Shown: in pieces, positions 1 through 50,669 of the stretch
How positions within the stretch are numbered: position 1 is the stretch's first letter
Layout of the letters: each line of letters starts with the position of its first letter
NCBI GenBank assembly: GCA_947627155.1
Contig: CANQUX010000005.1
Span: forward strand, 13,513-77,512
Source of the DNA: an uncultured Alphaproteobacteria bacterium
Lineage (GTDB): Bacteria; Pseudomonadota; Alphaproteobacteria; CAAHEQ01; UBA3637
Direction: 5' to 3'
Length of the DNA stretch: 64,000 nucleotides
Notes under the pieces: model-generated
Databases searched by the model: none
Told to the model about the DNA's origin: nothing
Seen by the model: the letters and a program-made list of their open reading frames with translations, nothing else
Program-made: the position numbers and the translations under genes

Positions 1-846
1 ATTACAACGGGGTCTGCTTGAATCCTTGCAATCCGTATGCTCTATACATTCCACACACTCGTGATTTGCTACATCACAAACAGATCTTGGAGCACTGCAA
101 TTGCCATCTCCCACACACTCCACACACGTATTACTCTCTTTATCGCATACCTGTGACTCTTCACAATCTTCATCTTTTGCACACCAACCTTCGGGACGAT
201 TCGAATCATAATTGCCGTTCACATCCGCCGCATCGAACTCAACATAAATTTCATTATTTTCATCACTGGTACATGAATCACCTCCTGTGTAGGACAAACC
301 ATTGATATCCATTTCCAAACGGCCGTCCATGGCGGCAACAAGCGTTGTGAGGGGCTTACAAACACCTTTTGAAATGTTCCCCACGACAATATAATAAGCA
401 TCTGCCTCACGACAATTATAAAGCTCATTTTTACTCTCTTTATTACCTCTGATGATACAATCATAATCAACGGGATAACGATCATATTGTGTTGATAAAT
501 GCCCGCTGTAATCTTCATTTTCTGGTGTATCATCATAAGGATCACCTAATAACAATTCTTCATTCCCCAAAGCGTATTTTACCTTTAAATCGTTACGCAT
601 TAAGTTAATTTCATTGGCAATTTGATCGGCTTGATAGTAGTTCATGGCTAATTTATAGCCGACAATCCCGCCGATTGATAAAATAGCAATAATGGCGAGC
701 ACCCCGAGCATTTCAATCATGCTCCGCCCGCTTTGCGATTGTGTTTTGATGCTATTTTGCTTTTCTTCTTCCCCGCTCACGATTTGTTCTTTATTTCTTT
801 GCATTTCTGCGTAGTTTAGCTGATTTTTTCTTGCATATTTCGTCAT
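1..846 (-). CDS. Modular type IV pilin-like protein, paralog A. Partial: start codon at 846, 3' end lies beyond the window start. Carries a prepilin-type N-terminus followed by Cys-rich repeats
   Basis: Reverse-strand translation from the ATG at 846 gives MTKYARKNQ...SQSG|RSMIEMLGVLAIIAILSIGGIVGYKLAMNYYQADQIANEINLMRNDLKVKYALGNEELLLGDPYDD.... This is >95% identical to paralog D over about 270 aa. It then becomes C-like (CVEC..DC..P.C) repeats. A conserved RBS (aaagggag) and leader lie upstream. It is missing from the ORF track only because no stop codon falls in the window. Confidence 0.7.
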   Translation of the reverse strand, partial: MTKYARKNQLNYAEMQRNKEQIVSGEEEKQNSIKTQSQSGRSMIEMLGVLAIIAILSIGGIVGYKLAMNYYQADQIANEINLMRNDLKVKYALGNEELLLGDPYDDTPENEDYSGHLSTQYDRYPVDYDCIIRGNKESKNELYNCREADAYYIVVGNISKGVCKPLTTLVAAMDGRLEMDINGLSYTGGDSCTSDENNEIYVEFDAADVNGNYDSNRPEGWCAKDEDCEESQVCDKESNTCVECVGDGNCSAPRSVCDVANHECVECIEHTDCKDSSRPRCN

Positions 847-882: not shown

Positions 883-1038
883 AAACGTACCTTTAATGCA
901 ACGCGGATTCGGGGGTAAAATTACCCTCAAAAATTGTTGAAATAGCCTTTTTATAACTATTTGATATTGCATTTATTTTCCTCTAAACTAAATTTTTTTT
1001 GAAAGAATCAAAAAAAGTGTTGCAAAAATCGTACGTTT
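883..1038 (-). promoter_or_regulatory. Conserved leader segment of paralog A, bounded by 20 bp imperfect inverted repeats. The arms are AAACGTACCTTTAATGCAAC and GTTGCAAAAATCGTACGTTT. This is a candidate invertible or operator-controlled promoter/5'UTR
   Basis: The same about 156 bp IR-flanked segment is present upstream of all four pilin-like paralogs. The arms are almost invariant while the interior diverges. Confidence 0.5.
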
Positions 1039-1077: not shown

Positions 1078-1105
1078 TTGACATTATTTTGAATATCCTT
1101 ATACT
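1078..1105 (+). promoter_or_regulatory. Sigma70-like promoter (TTGACA-16 bp-TATACT) firing rightward toward the IR hairpin and repeat R1
   Basis: Consensus -35 TTGACA at 1078-1083 and -10 TATACT at 1100-1105. Confidence 0.4.
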
Positions 1106-1685: not shown

Positions 1686-3098
1686 TCACTCACATAACGC
1701 GGAGTAGGAGGCGTTGCCATTGGTGGTGTAGACGTAACCATAGTCAAGGGAGACGTTGTACGCGAAGCAGGAATCTATTTTATTTTCCAACCAGACTCTG
1801 TCTCTTGTCTTACTGCTAAAATCATCTTTCAAATCCGTCCTTGTCTGACTGTTACATGTGCCAAGCCCCACCACACTGCCACACCCGATGCTTGCCCGCG
1901 TTGCTTGCTTCCTTCCTAATGCCTCGCAGAACCGCCCTGCACTCCACCAGTTCATCTCCGTACTTTCTGCATCTTCCGGCCACGCTAATGCAAAGCCGGT
2001 TTTCTTTCCTATTACTTTATCTTTGCTCGCATTCCGGCATTCACTCTTATGAAAGCTATTTCCTCCAAATTTATTAGGGTCAAATTCTTTGCCGTCACCA
2101 CATTGATACCCCCAATACATGTAGCAATACTCTCCCAGCCCGCAATCAGCATTGCTTTCGCATTCTCCGACGCGCTCCTTATCACATCCGCCGTTTTCAA
2201 GTGATGCTTTCCATTCTTTACTTGTGTCACTGCTACAAACGCATTTTCCACCCTCCGGTTTACTGTCTTCCGGACATTCTGTGCATTTAGTGCCGTCCCA
2301 ATATGGTGTAGCAGTGCTGCATACACAGTCTTCGCCATCTTCGCTAAGCTCTGCTCCCGCCGGACAAGCACACTTTCTACCGGTCCATACCTTTCCGCCC
2401 GAACAACCCGCGCAACAGCCGCCGTTACAGGTTTTCTCGGTGTCCTCACAGGTGCATTCGCCCTTATCGTCACTCAACGTTGTACCTCTCGGACATTCTG
2501 CCGGCACGGGGTCATCATCTTGCGGCGCATCGCCTTGTTCCGTGTCTGTTGGCGGATTGCTGCTTCCGCCGCTCACCCCGCCTATATCTTTGGTCGAAAA
2601 GGCGACCATTACTTCATTCGTTTCACCGCAGAAATTATCCTGCTCATCATAATAACTTTTGTCACCTATTTTTATATCAGCCGTATCGTCCATGTTATCT
2701 AACAAGGCTACCAACGGTTTACACACTCCCTCAGGAATGTTTGATAACGTAAACGAATAGCCTTTTTCCGTTTCACCCAATATCTCAATCGGATAAGCTA
2801 TCTCAATGCCATAATTACTGCCAAAATTTAAGTGTTTTTCATCGTCGTATGGCGAGCCGAGCAATAATTCGTCCACCCCGCGCGCAACTTTCATTTTTGC
2901 ATCGGTACGCATCAGGTTAATTTCATTTGCAATCTGATTCGCTTGATATCGATTCATGGCCATTCTGTATCCTGCTATACCGCCAATGCTTAACACCCCG
3001 ATAATAGCCAAAACGCCCAACATTTCAATCATTGAACGGCCTTCTTGAGCTTGATTTTGAACTTGTTTGAACTCTTTTTTCTTTATTTTATTGCTCAT
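1686..3098 (-). CDS. Modular type IV pilin-like protein, paralog B (470 aa). Domains in order: prepilin-type N-terminus, Cys-rich region, C-terminal C-type-lectin-like domain
   Basis: The N-terminus QEG|RSMIEMLGVLAIIGVLSIGGIAGY has the prepilin peptidase site and Glu+5. Many CxxC/DC motifs follow. The C-terminus MNWWSAGRFCEALG...SALCE is CTLD-like. An RBS and the conserved leader lie upstream. Confidence 0.8.
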   Translation of the reverse strand: MSNKIKKKEFKQVQNQAQEGRSMIEMLGVLAIIGVLSIGGIAGYRMAMNRYQANQIANEINLMRTDAKMKVARGVDELLLGSPYDDEKHLNFGSNYGIEIAYPIEILGETEKGYSFTLSNIPEGVCKPLVALLDNMDDTADIKIGDKSYYDEQDNFCGETNEVMVAFSTKDIGGVSGGSSNPPTDTEQGDAPQDDDPVPAECPRGTTLSDDKGECTCEDTEKTCNGGCCAGCSGGKVWTGRKCACPAGAELSEDGEDCVCSTATPYWDGTKCTECPEDSKPEGGKCVCSSDTSKEWKASLENGGCDKERVGECESNADCGLGEYCYMYWGYQCGDGKEFDPNKFGGNSFHKSECRNASKDKVIGKKTGFALAWPEDAESTEMNWWSAGRFCEALGRKQATRASIGCGSVVGLGTCNSQTRTDLKDDFSSKTRDRVWLENKIDSCFAYNVSLDYGYVYTTNGNASYSALCE

Positions 3099-3131
3099 TT
3101 TCTGCTCCCTTTCATAACAAATAGCATAAAT

Positions 3132-3288
3132 TAAACGTACCTTTAATGCAACGCGGTTTCGGGGATAATTTTACCCCTAAAAAGTGTTGAAACAAGCCTG
3201 TTATAACCCGTTGATATTGCATTAAAATTACCTCCATATAAATTTTTTTTGAAAAAATCAAAAAAAAGTGTTGCAAAAATCGTACGTT
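3132..3288 (-). promoter_or_regulatory. Conserved IR-flanked leader segment of paralog B
   Basis: Arms AAACGTACCTTTAATGCAAC (3132-3151) and GTTGCAAAAATCGTACGTTT (3269-3288). It is homologous to leaders A, C and D. Confidence 0.5.
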
Positions 3289-3303
3289 TTTTTGATGCAT
3301 ATT

Positions 3304-3330
3304 CAAAAAAAATCGCCTTGATGAGAGGCG
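3304..3330 (-). terminator. Putative Rho-independent terminator on the minus strand (CGCCTCTCATCAAGGCG hairpin followed by a T-run). No upstream minus-strand gene is evident
   Basis: GC stem with an A8 run on the plus strand (T-run on minus). Confidence 0.3.
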
Positions 3331-3637
3331 ACCGGAAGTTGCTAACTATCTATTCGACATAGTGCAGTATATTGACCAAAAGGTTTATTTTACTACCTTC
3401 CGGCCAGTTGACCATTTCCTTTTTTGATATCAATCAAAAAAGGCACAATTATTTATCCTTTTTCAAGGATACGAATAGAGAGGTTAGCATACCTCGGGGC
3501 ACACATCACTTGCCTTGCCTTTGAGTATAAAGGCAGTCAAAACTAATGTCAAGCAGAAAATTTGCCTCCTTTCACAAATGAAAAGGCCATTAAAATAACA
3601 ATAAACAAAACAACCGGAGCGTTTTTCAAAAAACAAC

Positions 3638-3702: not shown

Positions 3703-5109
3703 ATGAAACGAGCACAATGGGGCGGACAAATCGGTTTTATTCTGGCAACGGCCGGATCGGCTATCGGATTGGGTAATGTTTGGCGTTTTCCCTATATGGC
3801 CGGCCAAAACGGCGGCGGTACATTTTTATTTTTATATCTGCTCTGTGTGTTCGGGTTGGGCTATTTTTTACTGTTGTCCAAACTGGCTTTCGGCCGATGC
3901 GCTCATACAAATATGGTTGACGGTTTTTCGGTTGTTGCCGCCAAAAATAAAAAAATTATCTCGCCTTGGTGGGGAAAAACGGCCGGCGCGTTAACTTTGT
4001 TTAACACATTACTGGTTCCCGGGGTTTATGTGGTTGTCATCGGCTGGACTTTGTTTTATTTGGTTCATGCCGTTTTATATTTGCTTCATCTTTCCGATAC
4101 GCCTTTAAACAAAACCTTGTTTGAAGGTTTAACTGCCTCTTTCGGCGAACAGTTGTTTTGGAGTGTTATTTGCATTGTTGCCACTATGGGCATTATTATG
4201 CGCGGCATTCGAAAAGGCATTGAAAAAATATCGCTGCTGCTGATGCCGATTTTATTTGTTTTGCTTGTTTTTATGGCCGTTCGAATGCTTCTGATGCCCG
4301 ATGCTTTTAAAGGCATTGAATTTTTCTTAAAACCCGATTTCACCGCCATGGGCTTCACCGCCGACGGCTTTCAATTTAAAACGTTCGCAGCGTTATTGTT
4401 ACAAGTGATGGGGCAAGCCGTTTATTCTTTATCGTTGGGCTTGGGTGTTTTGTTTGTTTACGGATCATATTTATCCGATAAAGAAAATTTGTTGAAATCC
4501 ACTGCGTGGATTGCCTCACTGGATACGTTGGTTGCGCTGCTTTCCGGCTTTATTGTTTTACCGGCCGTTTTTGCCTTTCATTTACCGCCCGAATCCGGCC
4601 CGACTTTGAGTTTTATTACGCTGCCGATGGTGTTTGAACAAATGCTCGGCGGTGCTTTTTTAACGGTTGTTTTCTTTGCACTGCTTTTTATTGCCGCCAT
4701 TACGTCGTTAATTTCCATGTATGAAGCCGCCGTGAACGTTATTTCCGAAAAAATGCATTTAAATCGCACACACGCTGTTTGTCTTGTCGGCGGGTTGAAC
4801 AGTATGATAACCGGTATTATTTTGCTTTCTTTTTCAAAAACGGTTCCGTGGCAAATTAACAATATGGACCTGTTTTCTTTTGCCGATGTTTTAACCGGTT
4901 CTTTTACCATGGGATTTTTGGTTTTATATACAACACTGTTTATGGGCTGGGTTGTTTCAACGGCAGTGATTCAAAACATTCAAAAGGGTCTTTCCAAACC
5001 GTTGCCGAAGTTTTTTAAACGCTATTTAAGATTTACGTTGCGTTTTACCGCGCCGCTTCTTTTAATTGTTTTGTTTATCACGGCATTGACCGATTTAATC
5101 AATCAATAA
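3703..5109 (+). CDS. Sodium-dependent transporter, neurotransmitter:sodium symporter (SNF/NSS) family
   Basis: N-terminal hallmark GSAIGLGNVWRFPY; polytopic hydrophobic protein. Confidence 0.85.
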   Translation: MKRAQWGGQIGFILATAGSAIGLGNVWRFPYMAGQNGGGTFLFLYLLCVFGLGYFLLLSKLAFGRCAHTNMVDGFSVVAAKNKKIISPWWGKTAGALTLFNTLLVPGVYVVVIGWTLFYLVHAVLYLLHLSDTPLNKTLFEGLTASFGEQLFWSVICIVATMGIIMRGIRKGIEKISLLLMPILFVLLVFMAVRMLLMPDAFKGIEFFLKPDFTAMGFTADGFQFKTFAALLLQVMGQAVYSLSLGLGVLFVYGSYLSDKENLLKSTAWIASLDTLVALLSGFIVLPAVFAFHLPPESGPTLSFITLPMVFEQMLGGAFLTVVFFALLFIAAITSLISMYEAAVNVISEKMHLNRTHAVCLVGGLNSMITGIILLSFSKTVPWQINNMDLFSFADVLTGSFTMGFLVLYTTLFMGWVVSTAVIQNIQKGLSKPLPKFFKRYLRFTLRFTAPLLLIVLFITALTDLINQ

Positions 5110-27990: not shown

Positions 27991-28064
27991 GCGAGTGTAG
28001 CTCAATGGCAGAGCGGAAGCTTCCCAAGCTTAAGACGAGGGTTCGATTCCCTTCACTCGCTCCA
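27991..28064 (+). tRNA. tRNA-Gly (anticodon CCC), 74 nt with CCA encoded
   Basis: Manual cloverleaf: acceptor stem GCGAGTG/CACTCGC, anticodon loop TTCCCAA, T-loop TTCGATT. Confidence 0.85.
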
Positions 28065-28150
28065 TTTTTTTGAATAAGATATCATGCGAAAGTATGTAAA
28101 AATGCAGGGGCATCTACTTTGTTTTGAAATATTTTAAAGCGGAGTTAAAC

Positions 28151-28858
28151 ATGATATATGGCTACATTCGTGTTTCTTCCGACAAGCAAACGTTGGAAAA
28201 TCAAAAATTTGAAATTCGCAAATTTGCTTTACGCAACAGCATTCACATTGATCGCTGGGTTGAAGAAACCATTTCCACGCGCAAACCGCTTGAAAAGCGC
28301 AAATTAAGTCGATTATTAAATATCTTAACGGCAAATGATATTTTAATTACGTCCGAAATATCACGACTGGGGCGTTCATTATTGGAAGTAATGGGTATTT
28401 TACAAAATTGTTTATTAAAGGGGTGTCAAATCTGGACGATTAAAGAAAACTATCGGCTGGGTGCTGATTTACAATCCAAAGTAATGGCATTTGCGTTTGG
28501 TTTATCGGCAGAAATCGAGCGACAACTTATTTCCGATCGCACGCGGTCATCATTGGAAAATTTAAAGGCAAAAGGTATTAAGCTGGGGCGGCCGGTGGGT
28601 GCAAACGGTGCTGTTTTAAAATTACCGGAGAGTTTGGAAAAAATATTTCTTCTGATTAAAAACGGTTGTTCACAAGCCGAAGTTTCACGCATTATGGGTG
28701 TTCACAAGTCAACTATTTGTCGTTTGGTTAAGAAAAATTATCCGGAACTGATGGAAGAGGAAGAAGATTTATTGTTTACGTTGGAATCGCCACTCTCCGT
28801 TCCGTCCGATTTAATGCTTGATTCAACAACTTATCCGCCGTCTACAAACGAAAATTAA
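28151..28858 (+). CDS. Serine recombinase of the resolvase/invertase family
   Basis: N-terminal catalytic motif YGYIRVSSDKQ and a C-terminal HTH region. RBS-supported ATG at 28151. Confidence 0.85.
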   Translation: MIYGYIRVSSDKQTLENQKFEIRKFALRNSIHIDRWVEETISTRKPLEKRKLSRLLNILTANDILITSEISRLGRSLLEVMGILQNCLLKGCQIWTIKENYRLGADLQSKVMAFAFGLSAEIERQLISDRTRSSLENLKAKGIKLGRPVGANGAVLKLPESLEKIFLLIKNGCSQAEVSRIMGVHKSTICRLVKKNYPELMEEEEDLLFTLESPLSVPSDLMLDSTTYPPSTNEN

Positions 28859-30054
28859 AAATGCTTCGGCAACCGGCGTTGACGAGGAGTAACAATACCT
28901 AACTCCATCAATCGTTTCATATATAATGACCCGCGAATAAATAAAATTTTTTCAGGCGGAATTAAAAAATACAAAGAAGAAGTAAATCCGCCGACCCAAT
29001 CGGGTTCATGACCGGTTAAGAAAAACGCTTCAACAGGAATTTGAGAATTAAGCGTATCATATTTCGGAAGAGCTTTTTGCAACAAATGACATTCTTTTTT
29101 GGCACTATAAGAAGGATGGCATTTTAAAAACACACGCGCAGGAATATTTTTGAAAAAAGAGAAAACACTTATTTCCTGATTGACTGATTTTTCATTTCCG
29201 AAAAAATATCCGGCAGTTAAAAACACCTTTTTTTGCGGCGTTGATAAAGCTTGAACGGTTACCGAATCAATTTCAAAAAAATGCTCCAACAACTTTTTTT
29301 CATGCGGAGCAAGCCGAGCAGCTTCCGATTTTAAACTGATATTTTTAATATTCTTACGACCTATCCAATTGACAAACGTTTTTAATTTTTTATCTTTAAT
29401 AATTTCATCAGCACGACACAAATGGTAGGTAGCCGGCACCAACTTTCCGATAGAAGCTTTCCAAAATGCCACATCTTCATTTTTAATTTCACTGAAAAAA
29501 TTCGGATTTTTTTCAAAATTCCGTAAAATTTTAACATCGGGTTTAAACCGCATCCAAAAACCATATTCATTCCCGATAACATTACAAGCGCCGTCTTCAT
29601 ATAAATGAATATGCTCAATTCGAGAGGGGAGTTCTTTAATCAGCCGTAACAAGAAATAGCGCGTTTGATTGATATTTGAATAAACTTCAAATTGAGCTTT
29701 CGGATATCGATCGGCAATTCTTTTTAATGTTTTGATAAAAGAAGCCGAATGATACCCCCATAAACCTTCCGACGCCGCCAGATTAACTTCAACGGCATTT
29801 ATTTTGGATAAATCAAAAATTCTTGCGCGATTGGGGTAGCGATGAAAGAAAAAAACTTTTAATTCATTTTTTTCATGAGCCGCTTTAATAAATTCCACAC
29901 TTTCCCAAAGAACAGGTGAAGTAGCATAAACTTCAAAAAAAACTTTAATTTTACGAATATGTTGGGGGGGGGGGGTATTGTATAAGCATAAGAGAAGAAC
30001 GGTCAAAACCGTTAAAATAAATGTCTTTAAAAAAACTCTAACGGAATGTTTCAC
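28855..30054 (-). CDS. Membrane-anchored hypothetical protein with a C12 tract in codons 26-30. Possibly a glycosyltransferase-like LOS-modifying enzyme (uncertain); candidate for phase variation
   Basis: N-terminal signal-anchor. The poly-C tract encodes TPPPQ. No confident family assignment was possible by eye. Confidence 0.5.
   Translation of the reverse strand: MKHSVRVFLKTFILTVLTVLLLCLYNTPPPQHIRKIKVFFEVYATSPVLWESVEFIKAAHEKNELKVFFFHRYPNRARIFDLSKINAVEVNLAASEGLWGYHSASFIKTLKRIADRYPKAQFEVYSNINQTRYFLLRLIKELPSRIEHIHLYEDGACNVIGNEYGFWMRFKPDVKILRNFEKNPNFFSEIKNEDVAFWKASIGKLVPATYHLCRADEIIKDKKLKTFVNWIGRKNIKNISLKSEAARLAPHEKKLLEHFFEIDSVTVQALSTPQKKVFLTAGYFFGNEKSVNQEISVFSFFKNIPARVFLKCHPSYSAKKECHLLQKALPKYDTLNSQIPVEAFFLTGHEPDWVGGFTSSLYFLIPPEKILFIRGSLYMKRLMELGIVTPRQRRLPKHF
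29964..29975. repeat. Homopolymeric G12 tract (C12 on the coding strand) inside the 5' end of the 28855..30054 CDS
   Basis: Counted directly in the sequence. Confidence 0.9.
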
Positions 30055-48342: not shown

Positions 48343-48497
48343 AAACGTACCTTTAATGCAACGCGGATTCCGGGGCAAAATTACCTTTAAAAAGCAAAAA
48401 ATCACCCTTAAAAAACAATCGAAAAATCAATGAATTCCGGCCAAAATAAATTTTTTTTGAAAAAATCAAAAAAAAGTGTTGCAAAAATCGTACGTTT
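48343..48497 (-). promoter_or_regulatory. Conserved IR-flanked leader segment of paralog C
   Basis: Arms at 48343-48362 and 48478-48497. Confidence 0.5.
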
Positions 48498-48562
48498 AAT
48501 TGAGGAAAGAGAAGCAGGGAAAATATGTTTGTTTTATTTGGTATTCGTTGGGCTACTCTCTG

Positions 48563-48902
48563 TTATTTTCGGCGGGAAGTGCTGTCCCGTGAAACGTGGG
48601 ACAGCGCGGTGTGCCGAAAATAAGAAACGGAAAGCGGCAATATTGATATTTTCTCTGATTCTCGACACATAGCAGGACGTCACTTTTCACGACGTCCCAC
48701 ACCCGCCGAGAATCAGAGAAAGGAAGCAAGGCCAACAGATAACTTTTCTCTTTCATGGTTGAAAATTGTGTTGTTAACGAACTTCCCCCTTTTGTCGGTG
48801 GGTGGAAAGTAATGAAACACTTCCTCTTTTCCTCTATCGGCGGATGTGATGCGCTGCTGAAAGGAGCGCATCGCTATGGGCCGATAGGGGGAAAGTGAGC
48901 GG
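48563..48902. repeat. GC-rich structured repeat element R, copy 2; lies between the divergent leaders of paralogs C and D
   Basis: About 93% identical to 1334..1672, with a compensatory change in the TCTCTGATT(C/T)TCG(A/G) stem. Confidence 0.6.
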
Positions 48903-48929: not shown

Positions 48930-49085
48930 AAACGTACGATTTTTGCAACACTTTTTTTTGATTTTTTCAAAAAAAATTTATTTTGGACGGAATTCATTGA
49001 TTTTTCGAGTGTTTTTTAAGGGTGAATTTTGGCAGTTTGAAGGCAAATTTTGCCCCCGAAACTGCGTTGCATTAAAGGTACGTTT
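48930..49085 (+). promoter_or_regulatory. Conserved IR-flanked leader segment of paralog D
   Basis: Arms AAACGTACGATTTTTGCAAC (48930-48949) and GTTGCATTAAAGGTACGTTT (49066-49085). Confidence 0.5.
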
Positions 49086-49121
49086 ATTTTATGCTATTCG
49101 CAGAGTGAAAGGGAGTCAAAA

Positions 49122-50669
49122 ATGACAAGACAATTCAAAAAAAATCAATTAAAACAATTTCAAAATCAAGCGCAACAAGGCCGGTCAATGGTTGAAATGC
49201 TCGGCGTACTGGCTATTATTGCTATTTTGTCAATCGGCGGGATTGTCGGCTATAAATTAGCCATGAATTATTATCAGGCCGATCAGATTGCGAATGAAAT
49301 TAACTTAATGCGTAACGATTTAAAGGTTAAATACGCTTTGGGAAATGAAGAATTGTTGCTCGGGGATCCTTATGATGATACACCAGAAAATGAACATTAC
49401 CGCGGGCATTTATCAACACAATATGATCGTTATCCCGTTGATTATGATTGCATCATCAGAGGTAATAAAGAGAGTAAAAATGAGCTTTATAATTGCCGCG
49501 AAGCAGATGCTTATTATATTGCCGTGGGGAACATTTCAAAGGGTGTTTGTAAACCGCTTACAACGCTTGTTGCCGCCATGGACGGCCGTTTGGAAATGGA
49601 TATCAATGGTTTGTCCTACACAGGAGGTGATTCATGTACCAGTGATGAAAATAATGAAATTTATGTTGAATTCGATGCGGCGGATGTAAACGGCAATTAC
49701 GATTCGGGGCGCCCAAAAGGCTGGTGTGCCAAAGATGACGATTGCGAAGGATTATCAACCCCTGTTTGCGATAAGGAAAACAATACGTGTGTGGAATGTA
49801 CGGAAAATACGCATTGCGCCTCAAATATATGTCGGAAAGATCACACTTGCGGTGAATGCACAAAAGATTCGGATTGTGTCAATCCGCGCCCGATATGCGA
49901 TACGGAATCGGCAACATGTATGAGATGTGCTGTTGACGATGAATGTCAAAGAGCCAACGTGAATAAACCTGTTTGCGACATGGGTACCGGCGCTTGTTGC
50001 GATGATCCGCTCATGACATGGAATGGCAGCGAATGCGTTTGCCCCGAAGATTATGCCAAATCGGAAACCAGTTCCGGTCAAGCTATTTGTTTACCTTATT
50101 GCGAGGAAAATAATATCGGTATTATTTTAATGACGGATACTTCCGGCTCAATGACTCTGCAAATGTTTGAAAATGCCAACAAAGCCAAAGAGGCGCTTCA
50201 TATTCCGGAAGATATTCCGTCAGCCGTTTATTGGTGTGCTGCTTGTTATGATGCACATTGTTTGAAAAACACGCCATCCGGTCCGGTAAATGAACATCTT
50301 TCTTACGGAAAACATTCTGTCAGTGAAATTCGCGCTGCTCTTCAAACAAATGTATCGGACAGGCTCAAAGTAACCGGTGATTTTGGTGGCAGTATTTATA
50401 AAATTATGGATTATTGCTCAACCATTAAAGAAAAACTCATTATTATTGTTTGGTGGGATAATCAAAAACCGGCCGATACCGGTAATGATATACCTGCATT
50501 TTCAAAATTGAAAGAAAAATGCCCCGAAACGGTTATTTATAATGTATCACCGAATGCCAAATCATTTGCAAGCGCTGATAAATCTTTTGATTTAAATGAC
50601 ATTACAACGGAATATACGGAAGTTTTAAATCAATTCATTCAAAAAGAAGGTTGTGTTGAGCGAGAATAA
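49122..50669 (+). CDS. Modular type IV pilin-like protein, paralog D (515 aa). Domains in order: prepilin N-terminus, Cys-rich repeats, C-terminal vWA-like domain
   Basis: MTRQFKKNQLKQFQNQAQQG|RSMVEMLG...; vWA MIDAS-like motif IILMTDTSGSMT. Confidence 0.8.
   Translation: MTRQFKKNQLKQFQNQAQQGRSMVEMLGVLAIIAILSIGGIVGYKLAMNYYQADQIANEINLMRNDLKVKYALGNEELLLGDPYDDTPENEHYRGHLSTQYDRYPVDYDCIIRGNKESKNELYNCREADAYYIAVGNISKGVCKPLTTLVAAMDGRLEMDINGLSYTGGDSCTSDENNEIYVEFDAADVNGNYDSGRPKGWCAKDDDCEGLSTPVCDKENNTCVECTENTHCASNICRKDHTCGECTKDSDCVNPRPICDTESATCMRCAVDDECQRANVNKPVCDMGTGACCDDPLMTWNGSECVCPEDYAKSETSSGQAICLPYCEENNIGIILMTDTSGSMTLQMFENANKAKEALHIPEDIPSAVYWCAACYDAHCLKNTPSGPVNEHLSYGKHSVSEIRAALQTNVSDRLKVTGDFGGSIYKIMDYCSTIKEKLIIIVWWDNQKPADTGNDIPAFSKLKEKCPETVIYNVSPNAKSFASADKSFDLNDITTEYTEVLNQFIQKEGCVERE

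Follow-up and report, generated by a model that had tools for sequence, protein, structure and literature searches.

Inverted repeats upstream of pilin-like genes in an uncultured gut alphaproteobacterium: a candidate Mpi-type inversion switch

Results

Pilin-like genes and their leaders

The DNA analysed here (the window, 64,000 nucleotides over its whole length) comes from an uncultured alphaproteobacterium and carries four pilin-like genes, each preceded by a leader element bracketed by inverted repeats, as well as the gene of a small serine recombinase. The features are listed by position; promoter, hairpin and inversion-element assignments are predictions read from the DNA.

1..846, minus strand: pilin-like gene 1, N-terminal part only, running off the window start
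901-896 and 878-873, minus strand: equivalents in element 1 of the -35 and -10, respectively, of the promoter predicted for gene 4
883..1038, minus strand: leader (putative inversion element) 1, 5' of the pilin-like gene at 1-846, interior type 1; proximal arm 883-902, distal arm 1019-1038, extended inverted repeat 874-902 / 1019-1047
1686..3098, minus strand: pilin-like gene 2, 470 aa
3133..3289, minus strand: leader (putative inversion element) 2, 5' of the gene at 1686-3098, interior type 1; proximal arm 3133-3152, distal arm 3270-3289, extended inverted repeat 3124-3159 / 3263-3298
3311..3333, minus strand: intrinsic-terminator-like hairpin GGTCGCCTCTCATCAAGGCGA, then T8, immediately upstream of the distal arm of element 2
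28151..28858, plus strand: small serine recombinase, resolvase/invertase fold, C-terminal helix-turn-helix, N-terminal YIRVSSDKQ
46759..48306, minus strand: pilin-like gene 3, 515 aa
48343..48497, minus strand: leader (putative inversion element) 3, 5' of the gene at 46759-48306, interior type 2; proximal arm 48343-48362, distal arm 48478-48497
48930..49085, plus strand: leader (putative inversion element) 4, 5' of the gene at 49122-50669, interior type 2; distal arm 48930-48949, proximal arm 49066-49085
48950..48980, plus strand: A/T-tract palindrome block ACT8GAT6CA8TTTA, abutting the distal arm of element 4
49042..49054, plus strand: small GC-rich palindrome/hairpin GGCAAATTTTGCC, just inside the proximal arm, followed by conserved GAAaCtGC
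49067..49095, plus strand: predicted sigma-70-type promoter of gene 4, TTGCAT-17-TATGCT
49108..49115, plus strand: ribosome-binding site AAAGGGAG, 6 nt 5' of the ATG at 49122
49122..50669, plus strand: pilin-like gene 4, 515 aa

The N-terminus of the four gene products is pilin-like and common to all (QGRSM(I/V)EMLGVLAII..); the C-terminal parts, rich in cysteine, vary from one to the next. The N-terminal prepilin cleavage/methylation motif scored below threshold with both Pfam N_methyl (E 0.014 to 0.33, 11 to 15 bits; cut-off 21.2) and TIGR02532 (10 to 13.6 bits; cut-off 16.3), and 'pilin-like' denotes only a resemblance, judged by eye from the pattern G/RSM(I/V)EML...hydrophobic with E at +5. 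All four leaders that a first-pass annotation had placed upstream of these genes are present, leader 2 being shifted by one base (3133-3289). In gene orientation, each of these leaders (155 to 157 bp) consists of the distal arm, the A/T block ACT8GAT6CA8TTTA, about 85 nt of further interior and the proximal arm (GTTGCATTAAAGGTACGTTT), followed 3' of the proximal arm by ATTTTATGCTATTCG..GAAAGGGAG, 6 nt and the ATG; the strong ribosome-binding site reported earlier was found as AAAGGGAG, at 6 nt, in 4/4 leaders. As had been noted, the arms are near-invariant: the distal arm is AAACGTACGATTTTTGCAAC in all four window copies, and the reverse-complemented proximal arm is AAACGTACCTTTAATGCAAC in all four. 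The two arms of a pair match at 16 of 20 positions, as annotated, and lie 115 to 117 nt apart (about 115 nt in the annotation). The window holds four inverted arm pairs, that is eight arms of 20 bp, and a degenerate arm pattern (at most three mismatches) matched exactly eight times in the 64 kb, relative to 0.23 matches expected and with eight or more matches in 0 of 100 shuffles.

The inverted repeat had been given as 20 bp, which is correct for the arms, but the repeat itself reaches outward to 24 to 36 nt. Conservation also takes in TTTATGCTATT, the 12 nt that flank the proximal arm on its outer side, and each site together with its outer flank forms an imperfect palindrome of about 26 to 30 bp with a 2-bp centre (for example ATCAAAAAAACG-TA-CGATTTTTGCAA), the centres being TA/TA in the window. 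Elements 3 and 4 are 92% identical, and the A/T-tract block of element 4 recurs in elements 1 to 3; the perfect A/T palindrome described for the enclosed segment is present as a block, but takes a variant form in element 1. The picture of conserved boundaries around a drifting interior was upheld for the arms and had to be revised for the interior, which is of two types, each conserved across species. Nor is conservation confined to the boundaries, as it is equally strong in the A/T block and, over about 9 nt (GAAwynGC), on the inner side of the proximal arm. An Rfam search returned two tRNAs as its sole matches.

A Mpi-like serine recombinase

The annotation of a serine recombinase at 28151..28858 was confirmed by matches to Pfam Resolvase (3.9e-30) and a helix-turn-helix. 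The gene adjoins a tRNA-Gly (27991-28064) and lies 20 to 28 kb from the four elements. The best model for its product was NCBIfam NF009949, the master DNA invertase Mpi family (3.3e-79), with a score (265.3 bits) slightly below the curated cut-off of 272 bits and with 198 of 203 model positions covered. Relatives at about 60 to 65% identity number in the thousands; some homologues in metagenome-assembled genomes (MAGs) of gut Alphaproteobacteria carry the NCBI name Mpi family (for example P0059), and at two loci (L059 and L075) recombinase homologues are encoded directly 5' of pilin-like genes. The window recombinase is the candidate enzyme for all arms.

The Mpi consensus has reportedly also been written with W at position 7. 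The version with T, ARACGTTCGTN, is the repeat as quoted in PMC8375218, according to which the invertible capsule promoters of Bacteroides intestinalis measure 183 to 186 bp, are bracketed by GTTCGTTTAA, and have their transcription start inside the proximal repeat. The Mpi master invertase of Bacteroides fragilis and its invertible promoters go back to Coyne et al. 2003, as cited in PMC4747536 and PMC8375218. In the present elements, the arm sequence is AAACGTACG(A/T) when read inward and GTACGTTTAA/T when read outward. The window arms, AAACGTACGA and AAACGTACCT, each match the T version of the consensus at 8 of 10 positions, and AAACGTACGT, found in relatives, matches at 9 of 10; the Mpi half-site cited in the first-pass annotation was thus essentially right, as judged by the repeat quoted in PMC8375218.

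Homologous elements in related genomes

Relatives were collected by a protein-based scan with one genome per species, in which only uncultured gut Alphaproteobacteria MAGs were found, the closest being from rabbit gut. Some 35 to 40 homologous elements lie 5' of pilin-like genes in at least eight related MAGs, with at least 10 in one of them (bin64). The 21 aligned elements of the rabbit-gut clade are 154 to 157 bp long, and those of the L015/L017 clade 158 to 160 bp. Among the 21, the arms are near-invariant and the middle differs; the distal side reads (near-)invariantly TGCAyCAAwwAAACGTACGwTTTTTGCAAC-AC-T7-8, followed by phased A/T tracts, and the proximal side GAAwynGC-GTTGCATTAAAGGTACGTTTAwTTTATrCwATT, while the A/T-tract block is kept in 21/21. 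The GC palindrome inside the proximal arm varies between elements by two-sided changes of its stem (GGGTAA/TTACCC, GGAG/CTCC, AGCA/TGCT). The terminator-like hairpin of element 2 also precedes the distal arm in six related loci (L006, L009, L011, L018, L019 and L024).

The two types of middle are both conserved across species. The idea that type 1 is an inverted type 2 was rejected, since both align in direct orientation. The interior type is shuffled relative to gene class. In L086 and L087, the proximal arm and everything 3' of it, including the gene, show 100% identity, but the interiors belong to different types. The arm cores covary within an element and differ between elements. GTAG is found in both arms of L012 and GGTC in both arms upstream of a small pilin gene in L038, and the cores are GGGACG and CGGACG in L093, and GGGAGG and CGGAGG in L094; in five elements (L017, L023, L090, L093 and L094) the centre dinucleotides stand in inverted register (GA/TC). 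Such covariation is exactly what is expected from a serine recombinase that needs matching crossover dinucleotides. Exceptions to the matching centres are L015 and L089, in which the arm cores are mismatched and the switch state may be locked. Homogenised arms were found in L009 and L010, a hybrid arm in L024, and solo or decayed copies of the element in L038 (4808-4962) and L088 (2216).

Orientation of the interiors

All four window copies have the same orientation relative to their genes, as previously annotated. The A/T block is on the distal side (the standard orientation) in these four and in every one of about 25 elements from the rabbit-gut MAGs, which form the closest clade. No copy in the opposite orientation turned up in the window or in the assemblies (three from ENA, one from Logan) of the same or a near-identical strain, and the exact window proteins were found in public assemblies only with standard-orientation copies or on contigs ending at the leaders. 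Such contig ends cannot be used as a sign of inversion heterogeneity, because the contigs concerned stop at palindromes and repeats and have no k-mer overlap there. Searches of JGI metagenome contigs with the exact gene-side junction pattern and with the exact pattern of distal arm plus A/T block both gave 0 matches, the clade being absent from these contigs. The TA centre in the window is palindromic and therefore provides no polarity cue for a serine recombinase.

Overall, about 34 to 39 elements in standard orientation were counted versus two flipped ones (L015 and L090), both in more distant relatives and both with the A/T block adjacent to the gene. The interior of L015 corresponds to the reverse complement of that of L089 (81/98 matches; z 13.6 versus 1.4 forward), with alignment scores of 59.5 and -2.5 for the reverse-complemented and forward comparisons, respectively, and these two loci have homologous downstream genes (74% amino-acid identity) and near-identical 5' leaders. 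Likewise, the interior of L090 is reverse-complemented relative to L017, L088, L089 and L094 (z 7.8), whereas L088, L093 and L094, from the same metagenome as L090, are in standard orientation; the flipped junction of L090 was repeated in a Logan contig from another run. The inverted alignments cover the sequence between the sites from end to end, so the breakpoints lie within the sites. On comparative grounds, L015 and L090 point to inversion, and the proposal that the arms are recombination sites gains from both the Mpi-like recombinase and these homologous elements with the interior precisely inverted between the arms. The two flipped cases could nevertheless be rare fixed events.

A candidate promoter across the proximal site

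An invertible promoter segment had been proposed. Inverted interiors do occur in relatives, but the promoter candidate overlaps the proximal arm and is not in the interior. For gene 4, the candidate -35 (TTGCAT, 49067-49072) falls within the proximal arm's inner half, the 17-nt spacer holds the GTAC core, and the candidate -10 (TATGCT, 49090-49095) is outside the arm. The pattern TTG(C/T)A(A/T)-17-TAnnnT is present in every proximal site and is the sole promoter-like element common to all elements, with the variants TTGCAA-17-TACAAT in L017, L089 and L090, and TTGCAA-17-TATAAT in L088. A similar promoter at an equal distance to the ATG was seen in family members that have no element, and no promoter-like element is conserved inside both interior types. 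The candidate was not called by a consensus scanner, and its proposed -35 hexamers are weak (3 to 4 of 6 positions). The organism uses sigma-70 promoters of the ordinary kind; instances in the window include TTGATT-16-TATAAT, 5' of the transporter gene at 3703, and, at 1078, TTGACA-16-TATACT. Since the terminator-like hairpin is directly 5' of the distal arm, transcription of the gene would start within or after the element. From the sequence, the promoter thus appears to straddle the gene-proximal site rather than to lie inside the segment.

Other promoter classes were compared by eye and rejected. In the distal arm, CGTACG-N4-TTGCA has CG where a sigma-54 promoter requires GG; for the alphaproteobacterial EcfG motif (GGAAC-N16/17-CGTT) the spacing here is 19; the Bacteroides -7 box TAnnTTTG is absent; and for an ECF promoter of the form TGCAAC...CGT, the CGT is missing at the right distance. 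An antisense TTGCAT-16-TAAATT in type-1 interiors was set aside, as it is not conserved in type 2.

Discussion

Proposed mechanism

The paired arms are a real, non-random feature and most likely represent a Bacteroides-style phase-variation switch in another phylum. More specifically, we consider it probable that the leaders are inversion switches of the pilin-like genes, operated by a serine invertase of the Mpi family and with the promoter apparently split by the proximal site. Each leader would then be an invertible segment of about 156 bp between two hix-shaped sites of about 26 to 30 bp, each with its outer and inner halves separated by a 2-bp centre, so that the 20-bp arm of the first-pass annotation would correspond to the core plus the inner half-site. 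Like Mpi, which serves the capsule promoters of Bacteroides, the invertase encoded at 28151-28858 would work in trans on pilin-like genes at many scattered loci, with crossover probably at the TA centre. Crossover at the centre of the site would leave the -10 (TATGCT) fixed in the outer half and the -35 (TTGCAT) on the inner half-site that moves with the segment.

Inversion would thereby keep a promoter in place, with the -35 half-site changing from TTGCAT to TTGCAA, and would replace the upstream GC hairpin of the present state by phased A-tracts resembling an UP element. Once flipped, the A/T-tract block, which may be a bend or an UP-like element, would border the -35, the predicted flipped gene-side junction in the window being A8GTG-TTGCAA-AAATCGTACGTTTATTT-TATGCT, with a slightly better -35 and an A-tract before it. 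Exactly this predicted arrangement, with the A-tract next to the -35, is seen in the flipped L015 and L090. The orientation of the 4/4 window copies may be the low-expression state and the flipped one the high; although this assignment of the ON state is a guess, a low standard state would fit the orientation excess of about 20:1 if few of many loci were high at once. The predicted outcome would be phase and antigenic variation of a surface-protein family, and switching is presumably still ongoing in the source species. More doubtful, and offered tentatively, is the wider generalisation that a Mpi-related master invertase and this type of site occur in uncultured gut Alphaproteobacteria and serve a large family of pilin-anchored, cysteine-rich surface proteins with at least 10 loci per genome. 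In place of the classical cassette with an internal promoter, the crossover point would split the core promoter, most loci being low and few high.

Alternative explanations

The arms might instead be operators for a looping regulator, perhaps the recombinase acting purely as a repressor, with the protein bound both at the promoter-overlapping proximal site and, 136 bp off (13 helical turns), at the distal one, looping the DNA and repressing the pilin-like promoter, and no programmed inversion. The proximal arm indeed covers the -35 and spacer of the best promoter candidate, the length is held at 154 to 157 bp despite differing interiors, the phased A/T tracts would favour bending, and a single orientation is found in all copies of the source species and its closest relatives. 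Looping would not account for the flipped interiors of L015 and L090 with breakpoints exactly at the sites, or for the mosaic breakpoint at the arm between L086 and L087; neither would recognition by a single protein predict cores that covary within a locus and differ between loci of one genome, and the closest relatives of both protein and sites belong to a proven invertase system. Looping in place of inversion is therefore judged unlikely, but repression and inversion are mutually compatible, and a role of the recombinase as an additional repressor is plausible. About equally improbable is that the inverted repeats merely serve as substrates for occasional homologous recombination or gene conversion, the flips being accidental and the targets of the Mpi-like recombinase elsewhere. 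Such an origin would suit the low number of flipped elements (2 of about 40, both in distant relatives), the non-matching cores of L015 and L089, and the homogenised arms of L009 and L010 and hybrid arm of L024, which are typical of gene conversion. Repeats of 20 to 30 bp are poor substrates for homologous recombination, however, and the conservation across species of the arms, the core symmetry, the inverted-register centres and the fixed length implies selection on the sites; the core moreover resembles the Mpi repeat, and recombinase genes stand beside pilin-like genes in two MAGs.

Pairing of the arms in the mRNA as a long-range 5'UTR clamp for translation or stability, an option raised in the first-pass annotation, is very improbable. 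When the whole leader is taken as one RNA, the arms do pair in the minimum-free-energy fold (-56 kcal/mol, z -4.05), but this follows trivially from the repeat. In leader 2, and likewise in homologous elements from several relatives, a conserved terminator-like hairpin with T8 stands directly 5' of the distal arm; no promoter was found between the hairpin and this arm, and the promoter candidate is 3' of the distal arm, over the proximal arm, which would leave the distal arm untranscribed. The four conserved arm mismatches (G-G, A-A, T-T and T-T) include no wobble pair, and flipped elements retain the arms while reversing the interior. As little weight is given to the arms being the ends of a non-autonomous, MITE-like element or of recently duplicated blocks that have no regulatory role. 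Terminal inverted repeats around a short variable interior, together with the solo or decayed copies in L038 and L088, would suit a MITE; against it, the elements keep the same place and polarity with respect to the ATG, and no target-site duplication was found. Recent duplication of blocks identical throughout, which had been named earlier as an explanation that would undo the switch reading, is contradicted by arms that are identical across species around interiors diverged to 63 to 70% identity. The Mpi-type inversion switch remains the preferred reading.

Significance

If this reading is true, Mpi-type phase variation extends to an uncultured gut Alphaproteobacteria lineage. That two gut-dwelling phyla have similar recombinases and site cores suggests either horizontal spread or convergence of a host-adaptation mechanism. 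A split promoter, if real, would be a different way for inversion to tune expression and would matter for inverton-prediction software that seeks a promoter between inverted repeats. Metagenome assemblies break at the element loci. The products of the controlled genes are candidate variable adhesins of a not-yet-cultivable organism.

Comparison with known systems

In fimS of E. coli type 1 fimbriae, the tyrosine recombinases FimB and FimE invert a 314-bp segment between 9-bp repeats, with the promoter inside and a requirement for IHF and Lrp. The present elements, if invertible, share with fimS the arrangement of a short invertible element before a fimbrial or pilus-type gene, which in fimS gives ON/OFF phase variation, but differ in having a candidate serine recombinase and a straddling promoter candidate instead of tyrosine recombinases and an internal promoter. 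The Tn3/gamma-delta resolvase binds sites at res that overlap promoters, so that the recombinase doubles as a repressor. The predicted promoter-overlapping site is comparable, making repression a plausible second role here; resolution in Tn3/gamma-delta takes place between direct repeats at a single locus, in contrast to the inversion proposed for the leaders.

Closer in site architecture are Hin/hix of Salmonella, Gin/gix of phage Mu and Cin/cix of phage P1, the sites of which are imperfect palindromes of about 26 bp with a 2-bp centre. In these systems, the recombinase gene is in or beside one segment of about 1 kb to several kb, and a Fis-bound enhancer is needed. The A-tract half-site (ATCAAAAAAACG-TA-CGATTTTTGCAA here, TTATCAAAAACC for the hix half-site), the resolvase fold with a C-terminal helix-turn-helix, and 2-bp centres that are identical (in inverted register here, save in L015 and L089) are shared features, whereas the recombinase here is remote (20 to 28 kb) and the segments are many and only about 156 bp long.

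Global phase variation of the Mpi type is a hallmark of gut Bacteroidales. It differs from the system proposed here in its host (Bacteroidales rather than an alphaproteobacterium), in its targets (capsule operons rather than pilin-like proteins) and in the centre of its sites, which is TT in Bacteroides and the palindromic TA here. The promoter, inside the segment in Bacteroides, is here a predicted sigma-70-type promoter split across the proximal site, with no -7 TAnnTTTG, and both orientations are represented here only among homologues in related genomes, none flipped having been found in the source species. The likeness lies in a small serine invertase (a candidate here) whose gene is remote from its targets, in one repeat shared by many dispersed loci for surface structures, in segments of 150 to 190 bp, and in a similar repeat core (ARACGTTCGTN / GTTCGTTTAA in Bacteroides, AAACGTACG(A/T) / GTACGTTTAA/T here).

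Structured elements and a promoter beside the leaders

Three kinds of non-coding feature were located around the candidate inversion elements (leaders) of the pilin-like genes:

1078-1105 (+), near-consensus promoter TTGACA-16-TATACT, immediately beyond element 1's distal arm
1190-1262, and L007 3640-3700 (L-numbers denote sequences from related genomes or other assemblies), second small conserved repeat, containing GAGGCGACCG
1325-1685 and 48559-48894, structured non-coding element of approximately 340 nt, in two window copies 93-95% identical

The structured element lies between or beside pilin-like genes, and a third occurrence was found upstream of L005 1480. It is built from three similar long hairpin modules, each consisting of an A/T-rich outer stem, CGGC and an inner GC hairpin, and folds far better than shuffled sequences on both strands (z of -7.9 and -7.6). 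In the L005 copy the inner stem differs in sequence, although its pairing is kept. Comparison of the element with Rfam gave no match, and an ORF called over the first copy (1291-1689) is not preserved in the second. The promoter is directed away from gene 1, toward the structured element. The GAGGCGACCG of the small repeat is half of the terminator-like hairpin (3311..3333, minus strand); the repeat adjoins a long hairpin, GATCGAAAGATGGTAA...TTACCATCTTTCGGTC, and recurs close to leaders, both in the window and in the related MAG bin64.

Recombinase genes and their surroundings

Two further features concern the Mpi-like serine recombinase genes and possible mobile regions:

L075 2880-2945 and L059 30-95, palindrome TCGTTCGG-N8-CCGAACGA, upstream of Mpi-like recombinase genes
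43142-45325, VirD4/TraG-like coupling protein, directly beside pilin-like gene 3 (region 42308-46525)

The palindrome, which includes a CGTTCG core, may be an autoregulatory site for these L075 and L059 recombinase genes, both of which neighbour pilin-like genes; none like it was seen in the region upstream of the window recombinase. The latter gene is flanked, within 27991-30054, by a tRNA-Gly and, on the other strand, a PM0188-like sialyltransferase gene. Both this region and 42308-46525 may belong to mobile DNA or to DNA gained by horizontal transfer.

Assembly breaks and strain variation

In public SPAdes and MEGAHIT assemblies of this organism, contigs break off at leaders or within them (window 3298 and 48465; the starts of L001, L002 and L095), at positions coinciding with either the A/T palindrome or the distal site, which is itself nearly palindromic. 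Adjacent contigs ending at leaders share no k-mer overlap, and one public contig of 45 kb comprises exactly element 2 to element 3. The leader elements fragment assemblies.

Pilin-like gene content at the gene 2/transporter locus differs between strains. In L084 1-560 (Logan DRR848775), from another strain and compared with window 3000-3560, the DNA upstream of the sodium-dependent transporter gene holds neither gene 2 nor the leader of that gene; their place is taken by the 3' end of another pilin-like gene, which runs the opposite way.

The pilin-like protein family

Short family members (147-170 aa), which likewise have an element upstream (L024 2487-2642, L038 3752), look like a major pilin. 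Many members carry the motif MNWWSAxRFCxAL...C in a C-terminal domain (for example, window 1686-3098 and 46759-48306, and L015 and L024 proteins), which by eye looks C-type-lectin-like. It is preceded by cysteine-rich repeats, with a weak match to Myxococcus TraA (2e-5).
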